A DNA stretch of 32,000 bases from Promethearchaeota archaeon (GTDB taxonomy: Archaea; Asgardarchaeota; Hermodarchaeia; Hermodarchaeales; Hermodarchaeaceae), in NCBI GenBank assembly GCA_048938295.1, contig JBHLMI010000017.1, positions 23,625 to 55,624 of the forward strand, given 5' to 3'. A program made the translations under genes and the position numbers. Shown piece after piece: positions 16,897 to 26,956 of this stretch; position 1 is the first letter of the stretch, and every line of letters starts with the position of its first letter. Below the pieces are notes generated by a model. It had not been told where the DNA came from. It searched no databases and worked only from the letters and a program-made list of their open reading frames with translations.

Positions 16897-17526
16897 ATGA
16901 GCCTCAAAGAAATAACCGATGCAATCTATGCAAATTTAGCTACCCAAAATGAATCCCGTGATCTTCTCATTAATGAGATGCATAAGGTGTTGAAGGTCAC
17001 ACGTGAAGCGATTTCTGCACTTCACCAAGAAGAAATTTCAAAGGCTAGGAAATCAATTAAAACGGCCAAGTCCCTCTTAAGGTCAGCTCAAACGCATCTT
17101 AAGAAGCTCAGCCAGCTTCCTGTCGTTGGGCTAGTACAGGACGCTGAAGCTGAAGTCGCTGAAGCTACACTATTCTTTGCATTTCGTCTCAAAGAGGAGA
17201 TTCCTGGTCCGGAAAAAATTGGTGTAACGGATATCGGTTATCTTCAAGGGCTGGGAGATTATGTTGGTGAACTCCGAAGGTATTCGATCGATTCCTTAAC
17301 AAATGATAATCTGGATGAGGCCAAACGAGCATTTGCACAAATGGAGGAGGTCTATGCAACCTTAATCACGTTCGATTTTCCACGCGGATTAACACCAGGG
17401 ATTCGAAGAAAAACAGATGTGGCTCGAGGACTTCTTGAACGGACTCGCGCTGATCTAAGTACAGCCATTGAAAACCGTCGTCTGCTTGAAGGAATTACCA
17501 CTTTACAAAATTCGCTTGAAAAATAA
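16897..17526 (+). CDS. translin/TRAX-family protein
   Basis: All-helical protein with EVAEA and YLQGLGDYVGELRR motifs plus LRRKTDVAR-like IRRKTDVAR. AGGAG Shine-Dalgarno upstream. Confidence 0.88.
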   Translation: MSLKEITDAIYANLATQNESRDLLINEMHKVLKVTREAISALHQEEISKARKSIKTAKSLLRSAQTHLKKLSQLPVVGLVQDAEAEVAEATLFFAFRLKEEIPGPEKIGVTDIGYLQGLGDYVGELRRYSIDSLTNDNLDEAKRAFAQMEEVYATLITFDFPRGLTPGIRRKTDVARGLLERTRADLSTAIENRRLLEGITTLQNSLEK

Positions 17527-17530
17527 GGAA

Positions 17531-18199
17531 GTGACGCCCCTTTTGCCAACCAAATTCCCAACTTTAAGGGCACAGCAGATCCAGCGAATTTTGGTAGACC
17601 GCCTTATTGAAGAAGATGTATTCACCAATCCACCACGAACCGTGTGTGGCTTAGATGTCTCCTATTATAATCAAACGGCGATCGGAGTAGCCGTTTTGCT
17701 GAATTTTCCGGACTTGGTACCAATTGAGCATCAAATAGTGTACACAAAGTCCACTGTTCCCTATATCCCTACATTTCTCTCTTTTCGAGAATATCCTCCC
17801 CTTTCCTTGGCCTATACTGCCCTCTCCACAAAACCCGACCTGTGTTTCGTTGATGCACATGGTCGGGCACATCCACGAAAACTTGGTGCCGCAAGTCATT
17901 TCGGAATCTTAAGGAATGTGCCCACCATTGGAGTAGCAAAAAGTCTTCTATGTGGGACTATTCAATATGGTTCTTTACCGTTTGAAACCCTTATCCTCGA
18001 TGACGAAGTAATTGGTGTAAGGATAGTTACGAGACCTGGTTGTCATCCTATCTATATCAGTGTTGGCCATCGCATTTCACTCGCAACCGCTATCGAAATG
18101 ACGCAGCAATGCGTTACCCGGTATCGACTTCCTGAGCCGACGCGACTAGCACATCAGATGGCAACCAAAGCGCGCCTGAAACTAAAGAATAAGGTATGA
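17531..18199 (+). CDS. nfi: endonuclease V
   Basis: GLDVSY, PYIPTFLSFRE, FVDAHGRAHPRKLGAASH, TIGVAK and RLPEPTRLAH motifs. GTG at 17531, just after the translin stop, is preferred as start. Confidence 0.93.
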   Translation: MTPLLPTKFPTLRAQQIQRILVDRLIEEDVFTNPPRTVCGLDVSYYNQTAIGVAVLLNFPDLVPIEHQIVYTKSTVPYIPTFLSFREYPPLSLAYTALSTKPDLCFVDAHGRAHPRKLGAASHFGILRNVPTIGVAKSLLCGTIQYGSLPFETLILDDEVIGVRIVTRPGCHPIYISVGHRISLATAIEMTQQCVTRYRLPEPTRLAHQMATKARLKLKNKV

Positions 18200-22716: not shown

Positions 22717-24342
22717 TTAGTCTTCAAAGTCTTCGCCGCCAGGTGGGCCACCAGGACCACCACCCGCTTGCATGCCCTTAGAGGCAATGACGTCATCAAT
22801 ACGAAGAAGCATTTGTGCAACCTCGCTAGCGGACTTCACGGCTTGGCGTTTTACTACTAGTGGCTCCCAGACATTAGCCTTTGCCAGATCGCCTACTTTA
22901 CCTTTGATTCCATCAACACCTACTGTGACTTCACCTTTTTCATGTTGGGCCTTGAGGTCAGCGATGATATCAATGGGATCGAGACCTGCATTCTCAGCTA
23001 ATGTCTTCGGAATGATTTCCATGGCCTCAGCGAAGGCAATGACAGCGAGCTGTTCGCGACCGGGAAGACTTTCGGCGTATTCTTGAAGGTTTCGAGAAAC
23101 CTGTATCTCTGGTGCACCGCCACCGGCAACGACTCGTCCATCCTCAACAACGTTTCGAATCACACAGAGTGCATCGTGTAAAGCCCGTTCTGCCTCATCG
23201 ACGACAAGGTCCGTGCTTCCCCGAAGCAGAATACTGACAGCCTTCGGGTTCTTGCACCCTTCTACGAAGACCATCTTGTCATCAGCGATCTTTCGTTCTT
23301 CGAGAAGATGGGCTGTTCCTAAATCTTTCTTTGTAAGGTCATCAAGGTTCGAAATGAGTTTTGCACCAGTAGCACGAGCTAGTTTCTCCATGTCACTTTC
23401 TTTGATTCGTCGCACAGCTACTATACCTTCTTGAGCCATAAAGTGCTGAGCCACATCATCAATACCTTTCTGGCAAAGAACAACATTCGCACCGGCTTTC
23501 TTTACCTTGACCACCATTTCGCGCAGCATTCGCTCTTCTTCGTCAAGAAAAGCTTGCATTTGGGAGACTTCACGAATGTCGATTTTAGCTGTGAATTCGG
23601 TTTTTTCTACTTCAAATGCACTTTGAATGAGTGCAATTTTGGGATCTGTGAGCGTCTTTGCCATTCCAGGATGGACAATTTCTTTGTCAAGCACGATGCC
23701 TTCGATAAACATGGTATCGCGCACTGTACCACCCTGTTTCTTTTCAACCTTAACGTTATCAATATCCGCCTGCTTTGTCCCATCCACAGTGTCTGTGACG
23801 CGCTTAATGGCCAATACGGCTAAATCTGCTAAGAACTTCCGAAACTCAGATACGACCTTTGATTGCATGGAGGTCATGGCGACTTTCTTGAGCATTGTAT
23901 CGCTGTCATCATCGACAGCAATGGAATCTAGGCTCTCAAGAGCCTTCTCAGTCGCCTTCCGATATCCTTCTACAATAACGGTGGGATGGATCTTTTGGTC
24001 GGTAAGCAATTCAGCTTGTTTAAGTAACTCACCTGCCAGCACGACAGCGGAGGTAGTTCCATCGCCCACCTCATCATCTTGGGTCTTCGCTACTTCCACG
24101 ATCATTTTTGCTGCAGGGTGTTCAACATCGATTTCTTTTAGGATTGTAGCACCATCATTAGTAATTGTAACATCTCCGAAGCTATCCACCAGCATCTTGT
24201 CTTGTCCTTTAGGACCTAGAGCTGTTCGAATCGCCTCTGCTATTGCTACGGCTGCCATTATGTTATTATGTTGGGCATCTTGGCCACGTTCACGCTTTGT
24301 TCCTTCTTTGAGCAACAGTATGGGGGTTCCACCCAATGACAT
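22717..24342 (-). CDS. ths: thermosome (group II chaperonin) subunit
   Basis: LGPKGQDKML, TNDGATIL, GDGTTS and GGGAPE motifs. GAGGTGA Shine-Dalgarno at 24349-24355. Confidence 0.97.
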   Translation of the reverse strand: MSLGGTPILLLKEGTKRERGQDAQHNNIMAAVAIAEAIRTALGPKGQDKMLVDSFGDVTITNDGATILKEIDVEHPAAKMIVEVAKTQDDEVGDGTTSAVVLAGELLKQAELLTDQKIHPTVIVEGYRKATEKALESLDSIAVDDDSDTMLKKVAMTSMQSKVVSEFRKFLADLAVLAIKRVTDTVDGTKQADIDNVKVEKKQGGTVRDTMFIEGIVLDKEIVHPGMAKTLTDPKIALIQSAFEVEKTEFTAKIDIREVSQMQAFLDEEERMLREMVVKVKKAGANVVLCQKGIDDVAQHFMAQEGIVAVRRIKESDMEKLARATGAKLISNLDDLTKKDLGTAHLLEERKIADDKMVFVEGCKNPKAVSILLRGSTDLVVDEAERALHDALCVIRNVVEDGRVVAGGGAPEIQVSRNLQEYAESLPGREQLAVIAFAEAMEIIPKTLAENAGLDPIDIIADLKAQHEKGEVTVGVDGIKGKVGDLAKANVWEPLVVKRQAVKSASEVAQMLLRIDDVIASKGMQAGGGPGGPPGGEDFED

Positions 24343-24391
24343 GGTGGGTCACCTCTTTGATTAAAAGTAAGGTTGTTGCACTTTGCGCTTC

Positions 24392-24407
24392 AATATAAGC
24401 GTTTCTC
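24392..24407 (-). promoter_or_regulatory. thermosome promoter BRE-TATA (GAGAAACG-CTTATATT)
   Basis: Purine-rich BRE followed by TTATAT about 50 nt upstream of the ths ATG. Confidence 0.7.
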
Positions 24408-24560
24408 TAGTCCGTTGCCCGAAACCTACCCAGCCAGGACCTTTGGCTTGTGTTCGGTTCCTGCATCATCGACGAGCACCGACCCAACGGGCCTGTAACC
24501 TCTCGCCTCAAGACAGGCGTTTTTTGTCTCCGTCCAACTGGCGGCGACTAATTCCAAGTT
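24392..24560 (-). ncRNA. putative TnpB omegaRNA (scaffold overlapping the tnpB 3' end plus a ~20-nt flank-derived guide)
   Basis: Position expected for TnpB reRNA. Hairpin CGCCT-GTCTTG-AGGCG and CAGGAACCGAACAC segment precede the right end. The 5' boundary is approximate. Confidence 0.5.
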
Positions 24561-25711
24561 ATAACTTGCATTCACATCACGGTCTGCGGTGAACCCACAC
24601 CGTTCACACACATAACTCCGAACTGACAATCCCAAGTCGCGTTTCACATGTCCACATCTCGAACACTGCTTCGATGAGGGAAAAAATCGAGGTGCTACCA
24701 CCAACCTTGATCCATACCATAGCGTCTTATATTCTAGCTGTCTACGAAACTCAAAAAAGCTCGCATCCGACACCGCTTTAGCCACCCGACGATTCTGCAC
24801 AAGCCCCCGCACATGGAGGTCTTCAATCCCTACTACTGACTTGTTTTTCGCCAGCACGGTCGTCGCCTTGTGCACGGCATCCTTGCGTATATTCGCAATC
24901 CGCATATGGAGTTTCTGAAACATGAAAAGGACTTTGCGATGATTCCGGCTACCCCGCTTCTTATGAGCAAGCTTTCGCTGGACCCGTTTGAGCTTCCGTT
25001 CATACTGACTTAACGACTTGGGGTTTCGACGGTTGTACCATCGGAGACCGTAGCCAACCGACGAAGCCCCACATCCACACCTACAACAGGACCAGTCTGC
25101 TTAACCACCTCAATCTCTTCTTGAACATTAATCGACACAAACCAGCGACCTGCCTTCGAGGATACCGTAGCCGAGAGAATATGGATGTGGTCGGACTCCG
25201 CGGGCAAGTAACCGTGTTCTTTCAAACGGAGGTGGCCCAGACGCGGTAATTGGATAGCATCATTGAAGACGCGGATAGTTTCCGTTAACCGGAATGATCC
25301 ATAGCCCTTTTTCCGTGACTTGAATTTGGGAAACCCCGGGGTTCCACCTTTCCGGACCTGGCGAAAAAAATGACGAAAGGCCTTATCCAAATTACGGAGG
25401 GCTTCTTGAGGGGCACACTTTGAGACTTCATACATCCAACCAAATTCGGTCTTCTTGAGGCGATTCAGTTCGCGATGCAAGTCTATAGAGGTGGGTACCT
25501 TCCCAGTTTTTGAATATTCATCGATTTTCCCTGAAGGCCCCAGTTATAGGCGAAGCGAGCGCAGCCGGCGTGTTTGCGACAGAGGATCTGCTGGGACTTG
25601 TTCAGTTTCAACTCGGTTTTATAGCCCCGATGAATCCGTAGCTTAGTGGTGGTGGTCAAAGAACCGTTATCTCCTTAGCATTATTGGGGTGAGGGAGTTT
25701 AAAGGAAGACC
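24412..25711 (-). mobile_element. non-autonomous IS607-like element (tnpB only, no tnpA)
   Basis: Contains only tnpB. Left junction TGGG|TCTTCC and right end ...GTAGGTTTCGGGCAACGG, with GG at both junctions as expected for IS607-type elements. Boundaries are inferred from family knowledge. Confidence 0.65.
24426..25659 (-). pseudogene. tnpB: TnpB RNA-guided endonuclease, interrupted by two single-base deletions (near 25528 and 25023)
   Basis: TTG start with AAGGAG upstream. YKTELKLN..HAGCARFAYNWGL, then CAPQEALRNLDKAF, VGVDVG, IEDLHV, FPSSKQCSRCG, CERCG and DRDVNAS spread over three reading frames. Confidence 0.9.
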
Positions 25712-25834
25712 CAGGCTGCCAAAAAAGTGAAGTGAAAGGAGAACGGTAGTAATTCATCGGGAGGATTCTTGACCTAAAGTTTCCCAAAATGGGAGTAAAC
25801 CCACAAACAGTTGATAACATACGTGTTTAATACT

Positions 25835-26956
25835 CTACAACTGAAGTCTGCCTCTTAATAGCCACAAATTCCCGACGTGCGGTGGTTTACCCAACTCACG
25901 CTTGACAGCATCGTAACAGCGTTGAACTTGATCTAACGGAGTAATGGGCAAATCCCGCATAAGATGACGCGGATGAAAAACCAAGAGGCTATACTCAATA
26001 GAAGGCTGGTTAAGGCCTTTTAGAAAACGAGCGATTTTAGTAACCTCAAACTCATCGACATAATAAGGAACTAACAGTGTAGTCGCCATCAGTGGAGGAT
26101 ACTCCCGATCATCAAAAGGAAGGGAATCAGCTAGCATCGTGAAATTATCAAAAGTTGCCCTCTTCGGAATCCCGCACAAAGCCTGATAAATTGCATCCGA
26201 ATAAGCCTTTAAATCGAACTTAATGATACCACCACTCTCTTCAACCAATTGACCCGTTCTTTTCACCAGCCTAGGATTTCCTTGCCCATTCATTTCGAAG
26301 CACTGTCGGAGCACCCGGTTTTCAAATCGCGTCTTACAGGCCTCCATAACACGAATAGCAAACGGCAATTGGGGTTCAGGTGATCCGCCAAAATAGCATA
26401 TACATGATATTTTCGGATTCTGTTCGATTACACTGAGAAAATCATCTAAATGAACACCTATCCCTTGGGTGATTTGCTTATGGGATACATTCTGGCAAAA
26501 CAGGCAGTCGAGGTTGCAACCATAGAAAAACACAGCAAGATTCGAATACCCATATTCTGGCTGCGCCTTCTTCGCCCATTTTGGATAGCCCGCACCAGTT
26601 CCACCAGGACAGAAATACGACCCACAACAATTGGTTATATGCGGATCTAAATAATAATGCATTAACCCCATAGAAGCCGAGACCTTCTGTACTAACTGTC
26701 CATTCTGGTTTTTTCGTAAACCGCAATAGCCAATACCATTAGTTGGAACACGGCACTCGTTTGCACACACCTTGCATTGAATACCCTTTTCATCTTGAGG
26801 AATAGTCTCTGGTAACTCAAATAGGTCTGAACGCCACTTATGCGCATTCTGAACGATTTCTGCAACTCCGTCTAGCTTAGCTCGTAGACACGAAGGGCAG
26901 ATAGGAAGAACTTCGGCTAAACCTGTTTCCTCGTGACAAACAAGGCAACGAGTCAT
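25835..26956 (-). CDS. radical SAM protein (PFL-activating-enzyme / AmmeMemoRadiSam-like) with Cys-rich N-terminus
   Basis: GCNLDCLFCQN cluster motif, GGSPEP and KFDLKA. N-terminal CxxC pairs. Confidence 0.85.
   Translation of the reverse strand: MTRCLVCHEETGLAEVLPICPSCLRAKLDGVAEIVQNAHKWRSDLFELPETIPQDEKGIQCKVCANECRVPTNGIGYCGLRKNQNGQLVQKVSASMGLMHYYLDPHITNCCGSYFCPGGTGAGYPKWAKKAQPEYGYSNLAVFFYGCNLDCLFCQNVSHKQITQGIGVHLDDFLSVIEQNPKISCICYFGGSPEPQLPFAIRVMEACKTRFENRVLRQCFEMNGQGNPRLVKRTGQLVEESGGIIKFDLKAYSDAIYQALCGIPKRATFDNFTMLADSLPFDDREYPPLMATTLLVPYYVDEFEVTKIARFLKGLNQPSIEYSLLVFHPRHLMRDLPITPLDQVQRCYDAVKRELGKPPHVGNLWLLRGRLQL

Follow-up and report, generated by a model that had tools for sequence, protein, structure and literature searches.

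A tnpB-omegaRNA element inserted flush with a predicted thermosome core promoter in an Asgard archaeon

The thermosome locus and the inserted element

The window considered here, i.e., the whole 32,000-nucleotide stretch of DNA that was analysed, comes from an Asgard genome assembled to 2.52 Mb in 66 contigs (91.6% complete). Its profilin gene, which scores above the cut-off of the Pfam family Profilin, agrees with the Asgard assignment. Read along the minus strand, the window presents a radical SAM gene, an inserted element (approximately 25799 to 24412), a thermosome gene and an RpoK-like gene, in this order. The radical SAM gene (25835–26956, minus strand; Pfam Radical_SAM) lies upstream of the element, and its synteny is kept in 11 congeners. 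The thermosome gene (22717–24342, minus strand) is intact; it codes for a group II chaperonin of 541 aa and matches Pfam Cpn60_TCP1 with an E value of 4e-191 over profile positions 1–489 of 490. A second thermosome paralogue is located on contig C61 of the same genome. Our genus sample comprised 15 genomes, namely the host (labelled G000) and 14 congeners (the other G numbers), with L numbers denoting individual element copies or loci; the thermosome locus was compared in 12 genomes, the host and 11 congeners.

The original prediction placed the right end of the element at position 24412 (...CAACGG|), and two independent lines of evidence agree with it. Firstly, 15 copies of the 3' module found elsewhere in the host and its congeners all finish with ...TTTCGGRCAACGG and diverge directly after it. 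Secondly, the site is empty in 11 congeners, where the radical SAM gene is directly followed by the thermosome promoter and homology restarts exactly at ACTAGAG. In the closest genome, G001, the empty allele reads TAG-AGCATAAGCGGTGTCGGG|ACTAGAGAAACGCTTATATT; its identity to the host amounts to 94–97% in the flanks, with 94% for the 5' part of the thermosome gene and 97% for the promoter. Homology with the empty alleles is lost near 25830 on the left side and returns at 24413/24411 on the right, delimiting an inserted block of approximately 1.39–1.42 kb, and the block missing from G001 starts no further left than 25829. Among the 12 genomes in which the locus was compared, the host is thus the only one with the insertion. 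The most similar element in the genus reaches just 75% identity; the last ~140–160 nt of the element recur at five further host sites and at many sites in 12 of the 14 congeners. As for a target duplication, the longest repeat shared by the two flanks is 6 nt, which is at chance level, as against 13 nt at L002, another host copy of the element (see below).

Most of the element is taken up by a tnpB pseudogene (24426–25659, minus strand), which is spread over three reading frames by two 1-nt deletions, at 25526/25525 and 25026/25025. These were placed by DNA alignment with two intact homologues, L028 and L002. That tnpB is inactivated, as had been proposed, is thus borne out, with the proviso that both frameshifts come from one MAG assembly and that tnpB would be intact if they were assembly errors. 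The three fragments match the Pfam families HTH_OrfB_IS605, OrfB_IS605 and Cas12f1-like_TNB, and in a tblastn comparison they cover the intact 412-aa paralogue L002 end to end, in three frames, at 62–65% identity. The broken gene keeps the D (VGVDVG), E (GIEDL) and D (DRDVNA) motifs of RuvC, as well as the zinc ribbon. For the intact paralogue, the closest natural homologue with a solved structure is the ISDra2 TnpB (8h1j, 8bf8), matched over its full length with an E value of ~1e-66.

The omegaRNA scaffold and the right end, finishing with ...TTTCGGGCAACGG, occupy 137 nt (24412–24548, minus strand) and overlap the last codons of tnpB. An alignment of 16 copies yielded 38 predicted pairs, 95.4% paired, 15 of them with compensatory changes; none of 500 shuffles reached the observed values, and slid controls were 32–48% paired. 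No Rfam family was matched in a scan of 24200–25900 with E values up to 1. As judged from this alignment, the scaffold at the thermosome locus is essentially intact and structurally conserved despite the broken tnpB.

The left part of the element is less sharply defined. The left-end region (25660–25799, minus strand) contains a likely tnpB promoter, TTTAAA at 25703–25698, which precedes the tnpB start by about 45 nt. Two candidates for the boundary were found: a TGGG at 25803–25800, favoured by the comparison with the empty sites, and a TGGG at 25713–25710, fitting the layout of NGG and TATA near the tnpB start of other copies. When the upstream regions of 10 full copies, and those of the two closest copies, were aligned, no conserved left end was seen beyond a loose succession of NGG, a T/C-rich stretch and TATA, and copies of 75% identity or less showed no left-end homology. 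In the closest relative of the thermosome-locus element, L028 (positions 600–850; contig C49 of G011), two such left-end-like modules are separated by approximately 95 nt. The outer module is homologous with the left end of L029, and the inner module with 25713–25690 of the window, which may be a sign that elements were nested or replaced there.

The junctions themselves follow a common pattern. On the left they end in GG, usually as NGGG: TGTGGG| or CCTGGG| in the window, TCGGG| in the empty site, GAAGAGG| at the eL22 locus and GGGG| or GTGG| for the insertion of G006 at the uL22 locus. On the right, the element ends with ...ACGG| (...GAACGG| at the eL22 locus), and GG is accordingly present at both junctions. 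An IS607-family element with a strict GG core, in which TGGG is both the target motif and the TAM, has been described (10.1101/2023.11.20.567912); GG at both junctions together with (T/C)GGG or RGG on the left matches that core and that motif. A search for a cognate transposase was negative. Resolvase (PF00239) is absent from the host (91.6% complete) and from the 14 congeners, with control genomes positive. The Y1 transposase (PF01797) is absent from the host and has a single match in the genus, in G013, where it adjoins an unrelated TnpB of 20–32% identity. A search for Cas1, confined to the host genome, returned nothing. At the same time, tnpB genes are plentiful: there are 12 TNB-domain matches in the host, many tnpB genes in the 15 genus genomes and many insertion polymorphisms of tnpB elements between the species. 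Lacking a cognate transposase in any of the 15 genomes searched, the element is therefore taken to be non-autonomous and IS1341-like.

The predicted core promoter as guide

The guide position of the omegaRNA is taken by the 20 nt that adjoin the right end (24392–24411, minus strand; ACTAGAGAAACGCTTATATT as the reverse complement). The original prediction had read in them the BRE and TATA box of the chaperonin gene, and the sequence agrees: the predicted BRE AGAGAAAC (24408–24401) and TATA box TTATATT (24398–24392) both lie within the guide position, the latter some 50 nt before the ATG at 24342, and are followed by the Shine-Dalgarno sequence GAGGTGA (24355–24349), all on the minus strand. In the alignment of 12 genomes, A(C/G)(T/C)AG(A/C)GAAA(C/T)(G/T)(C/T)TTATAT is invariant or nearly so, and the DNA upstream of this block is unconserved. 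The element thus abuts the conserved core promoter precisely at its 5' limit, with 5 nt left before the BRE. In this way, the insertion would locate, with single-base precision, where the functional part of an Asgard thermosome promoter starts on its 5' side. The block resembles the promoter of the uL22 operon, TAGCAGAATTCTTATATAGGG.

It had also been supposed that the element cut off heat-shock elements lying upstream of the promoter. We found no trace of them: in the empty alleles, the spacer from the radical SAM stop codon to the insertion point or the BRE holds only ~10–30 nt, which are unconserved, so no conserved upstream element was cut off. Archaeal TATA boxes are centred approximately 26 nt upstream of the transcription start, which puts the expected start of the thermosome transcript near 24368. 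Between the TATA box and this position there is a box, AAAGTGCAACA (24374–24384, minus strand), nearly invariant in 11 of the 12 genomes, and the second thermosome paralogue (C61, ~17505–17535) carries a related one, TATGTCAGTGCAAGG / TATGTCAGTG.AAGG, directly after its own TATA. The former may represent an operator or an initiator region that the insertion left intact, and the pair may form a shared operator for the stress regulation of both thermosome genes. Since the sole box common to the two promoters lies downstream of the TATA, a stress operator, if there is any, is likelier there.

With core promoter, box, Shine-Dalgarno sequence and gene all untouched, the thermosome gene is most likely still expressed from its own TATA box. 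An influence in cis might nonetheless be imagined, in which transcription of tnpB and the omegaRNA crosses the right end into the BRE and TATA, either occluding the pre-initiation complex or adding read-through thermosome transcripts; conversely, bound TBP and TFB might block this transcription and thereby define the 3' end of the omegaRNA. The arrangement would permit it: tnpB, omegaRNA and thermosome gene are co-oriented, the TATA-like TTTAAA precedes the tnpB start, and no oligo-T run is met within 45 nt beyond the right end, a CTTTTAA appearing at about +46. On the other hand, the native promoter is fully kept and conserved, and an insertion seen in one of 12 genomes gives no sign that selection has kept it. 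We therefore hold such effects, blocking included, to be possible but rather unlikely. They could coexist with the explanation that we prefer (see below).

What the guide could do is governed by the general design of TnpB elements. The guide of a TnpB is transcribed from the sequence that borders the right end; together with the TAM, this sequence makes up the empty donor joint, which is what the RNP recognises, and homing on the empty allele is standard for all TnpB elements (PMC8612924; 10.1101/2023.03.14.532601). The original prediction that a functional RNP would target the empty allele agrees with this, as a common property of TnpB homing and not a locus-specific one. The target is preceded by CGGG and matches the guide with 0 mismatches in the empty alleles of G001 and G012; four more congeners have guide matches with 0–1 mismatch and other flanks. 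Within the host genome, a search at up to 3 mismatches returned the element's own flank as the sole match. At this site, i.e., in the filled allele, the four nucleotides before the target are ACGG and not the TGGG-type TAM, deduced for this family from its junctions, that would be needed. An RNP loaded with the thermosome guide would thus find targets in empty alleles only, and with ACGG before the filled target and no second genomic copy, neither self-targeting nor RNA-guided repression is expected. The guide is set by the landing site; it spells BRE and TATA for this reason, and no regulatory adaptation needs to be invoked.

The same observations bear on a comparison drawn in the original prediction with TldRs, nuclease-dead TnpB-like repressors whose guides overlap core promoter elements (10.1101/2023.11.30.569447). 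Applied to this locus, it would mean that the omegaRNA of the dead copy is loaded in trans by the intact TnpB of L002, L003 or L006 and tunes the chaperonin promoter. The scaffold is ~80% identical to the scaffolds of the intact paralogues, intact TnpB genes do exist in the host genome, and promoters are what the TldR precedents target. Yet the ACGG before the filled-allele target differs from the (T/C)GGG or RGG of the left junctions, the paralogues keep D/E/D and would cut rather than repress, and neither the arrangement is conserved in any relative nor are the features of TldRs seen in it. Such control strikes us as scarcely credible, and the analogy does not hold: the broken tnpB itself retains its RuvC motifs, the insertion is absent from the relatives, and the filled site has no TAM.

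Sister copies and promoter edges

The thermosome case does not stand alone. L002 (host contig C15), with an intact tnpB at 403–1641 of the locus, adjoins the BRE and TATA of the uL22-uS3 ribosomal operon, a locus that is empty in eight congeners (...CACAGAC|TAGCAGAATTCTTATATAGGG). This copy is flanked by an exact direct repeat of 13 nt, TAGCAGAATCCTT (357–369 and 1656–1668 of L002), which is the BRE part of the uL22-uS3 promoter; such a duplication is longer than IS607 or IS200/IS605 chemistry predicts. In another species, G006, a gene-less omegaRNA/right-end module (L052/L076; contig C30, ~64020–64163) is found at the uL22 promoter as well, with the junction RE|CACAGAC TAGCAG..., in the same orientation and 7 nt upstream of the L002 position, i.e., as an independent insertion. 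Finally, L003 (host contig C33), whose tnpB at 1487–2722 of the locus is intact too, adjoins TTTTTAAGG, 62 nt before the ATG of eL22. Eleven congeners are empty at the eL22 locus, and G002 is filled.

The eL22 locus has a history of its own. An element with the same junction is present in the host, with tnpB intact, and in the distant congener G002 (L102, contig C7), with tnpB internally deleted, and closer relatives are empty. As the identity of the two elements (~66%) equals that of their flanks, either an old insertion was precisely lost several times or the site was hit repeatedly. At the loci filled in two genomes we saw no sign of recent horizontal homing, element identity (66–72%) being equal to flank identity.

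L002 and L003 also help to judge another suggestion of the original prediction, according to which the harm done by an active RNP that has an essential core promoter as its target may have led selection to inactivate tnpB. The broken tnpB at the thermosome locus and the CGGG-flanked target in the empty alleles of close relatives would fit such a scenario. It is countered by these two host copies, whose guides cover the promoters of the uL22 operon and eL22, i.e., of essential ribosomal protein genes, while their tnpB genes are intact: a promoter guide does not force tnpB to decay. Moreover, the filled allele offers no TAM to an RNP, and at ordinary loci, too, the family often shows decayed tnpB copies and right ends without a gene. 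Selection of this kind is, in our opinion, very unlikely to have been at work.

A further question is whether the family prefers promoters. Three of the six host copies adjoin the TATA boxes of very highly expressed genes (thermosome, uL22 operon, eL22), and the uL22 promoter was hit twice independently, in G000 and G006, at positions 7 nt apart. Furthermore, a TATA-like motif lies within +0 to +16 of the right end in 5–6 of ~31 copies, as compared with 2.7% of non-ORF positions in the host, an approximately six-fold enrichment, so that placement beside promoters may amount to more than passive filtering. It is tempting to suppose that the elements actively integrate at the upstream edge of strong promoters, guided, e.g., by NGGG motifs, melted DNA or negative supercoiling. 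Nevertheless, the numbers are small, the gene categories were picked after the fact, and the loci are in part common by descent. About half of 28 copies lie no more than 120 nt upstream of a co-oriented ORF, which is what random orientation in short spacers predicts, and purifying selection in such spacers would produce an equal pattern. For these reasons, active preference is a tentative idea, to which we give less than even credence by some way. The notion that downstream genes are generally highly expressed housekeeping genes was discarded, since in the congeners they are ordinary ones (enoyl-CoA hydratase, NIF3, DinB, OsmC, Nnr, glycosyltransferase).

A bolder extension would be that, genus-wide, transposase-less tnpB/omegaRNA elements sit systematically flush with the upstream edges of strong core promoters and take BRE and TATA as guides, as a strategy in its own right. 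We deem it distinctly unlikely. If it were true, elements could home, guided by RNA, from one lineage to a related one by way of conserved promoter targets, the bound pre-initiation complex might define the 3' end of the guide, and a trans-loaded TnpB might touch promoter activity.

Solo modules of ~140–160 nt, made of the last ~20–48 codons of tnpB and the omegaRNA scaffold, deserve a separate comment. They include L004 and L005 in the host and L043–L046, L052 and L053 in congeners, being numerous in G005 and G006. They are ~80% identical to the window and often better conserved than full copies. Such modules could be remnants or miniature non-autonomous elements.

Overall, we regard it as probable that the configuration at the thermosome locus results from passive landing: a tnpB-only element came to rest at the promoter edge, received BRE and TATA as its guide by virtue of the landing site, and its tnpB subsequently decayed. 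In such a scenario, a non-autonomous, IS1341-like element of ~1.39 kb, related to IS607 and IS200/IS605, would have inserted between the radical SAM and thermosome genes after the split from the closest sampled relative. Its landing site would have been an NGGG located 5 nt before the BRE, and its orientation that of the thermosome gene; in so short a spacer, only insertions at the promoter edge would presumably be tolerated. Then, tnpB would have decayed through the two 1-nt deletions, the omegaRNA scaffold staying intact. As the BRE is preceded by only ~18–30 nt of spare intergenic DNA, every insertion that is tolerated and points the same way will have the promoter inside or close to the 20 nt next to its right end. 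That guide and promoter coincide is hence real, yet not improbable.

The value added by this case is modest and consists of precise junctions, a promoter footprint and a family-wide context. Thanks to a clean pair of filled and empty alleles, a subfamily of Asgard TnpB/omegaRNA elements can be assigned its right end, its guide and a target motif of the NGGG type. Taken together, the thermosome, uL22 and eL22 cases show that a genome can harbour intact TnpB copies even though essential promoters serve as guides. This is of relevance to the avoidance of self-harm, and also to the question of how elements that consist of tnpB only survive and spread in genomes in which a transposase was not detected.

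Relation to known TnpB systems

The element presents the features of TnpB/omegaRNA systems, namely HTH, RuvC (D/E/D) and zinc-ribbon TNB parts and a structured RNA that overlaps the 3' end of tnpB and stops at the element boundary. With the ISDra2 TnpB of Deinococcus radiodurans (IS200/IS605; 8h1j, 8bf8, 8exa), it shares the domain order and the D/E/D RuvC motifs, an omegaRNA scaffold of ~140 nt and the homing logic (PMC8612924). Unlike ISDra2, it has no cognate Y1 in the genus as far as our search went, its junctions are NGGG/ACGG instead of TTGAT, and its tnpB is frameshifted.

The IS607 family, e.g., the IStron of C. botulinum (10.1101/2023.11.20.567912), is closer with respect to the junctions: GG on both sides (...GGG|LE, RE...ACGG|) and a TGGG-like motif on the left, TGGG being reported as both the target of TnpA_S and the TAM of TnpB. 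The lack of a target duplication at the thermosome-locus copy agrees as well, as do tnpB at the right end, the overlapping omegaRNA and a guide taken from the right flank. However, no serine recombinase was found in the host and the 14 congeners, so the element is at best a non-autonomous derivative; it carries no group I intron, in contrast to the IStron, and its host is archaeal. The 13-bp direct duplication of the sister copy L002 likewise departs from the family.

TldRs (10.1101/2023.11.30.569447) resemble the thermosome case in that a guide RNA of the TnpB family overlaps core promoter elements. The differences weigh more heavily. In TldRs, RuvC sites are degraded in an intact ORF, while here the motifs are kept and the ORF is frameshifted. 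TldRs reside outside transposons and are conserved with partner genes, whereas here we see a fresh insertion in one genome; and the TldR target is flanked by a TAM, the sole match here being the element's own flank without one. The thermosome-locus element is an ordinary insertion, whose guide is its flank as in every TnpB element, and not a TldR-like regulator.

The best counterpart is provided by the IS1341-type solo tnpB elements of archaea, from which nothing essential sets it apart, apart from its belonging to an Asgard-lineage subfamily with a scaffold of its own, not matched in Rfam. These, too, are tnpB-only, occur in many copies per genome and lack a transposase, and they have a structured 3' RNA, an omegaRNA overlapping in the sense direction and gene-less right-end remnants. 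Judging from its junctions, gene content and RNA, we class it as a tnpB-omegaRNA element of the IS607-type/IS1341-like kind that is non-autonomous.
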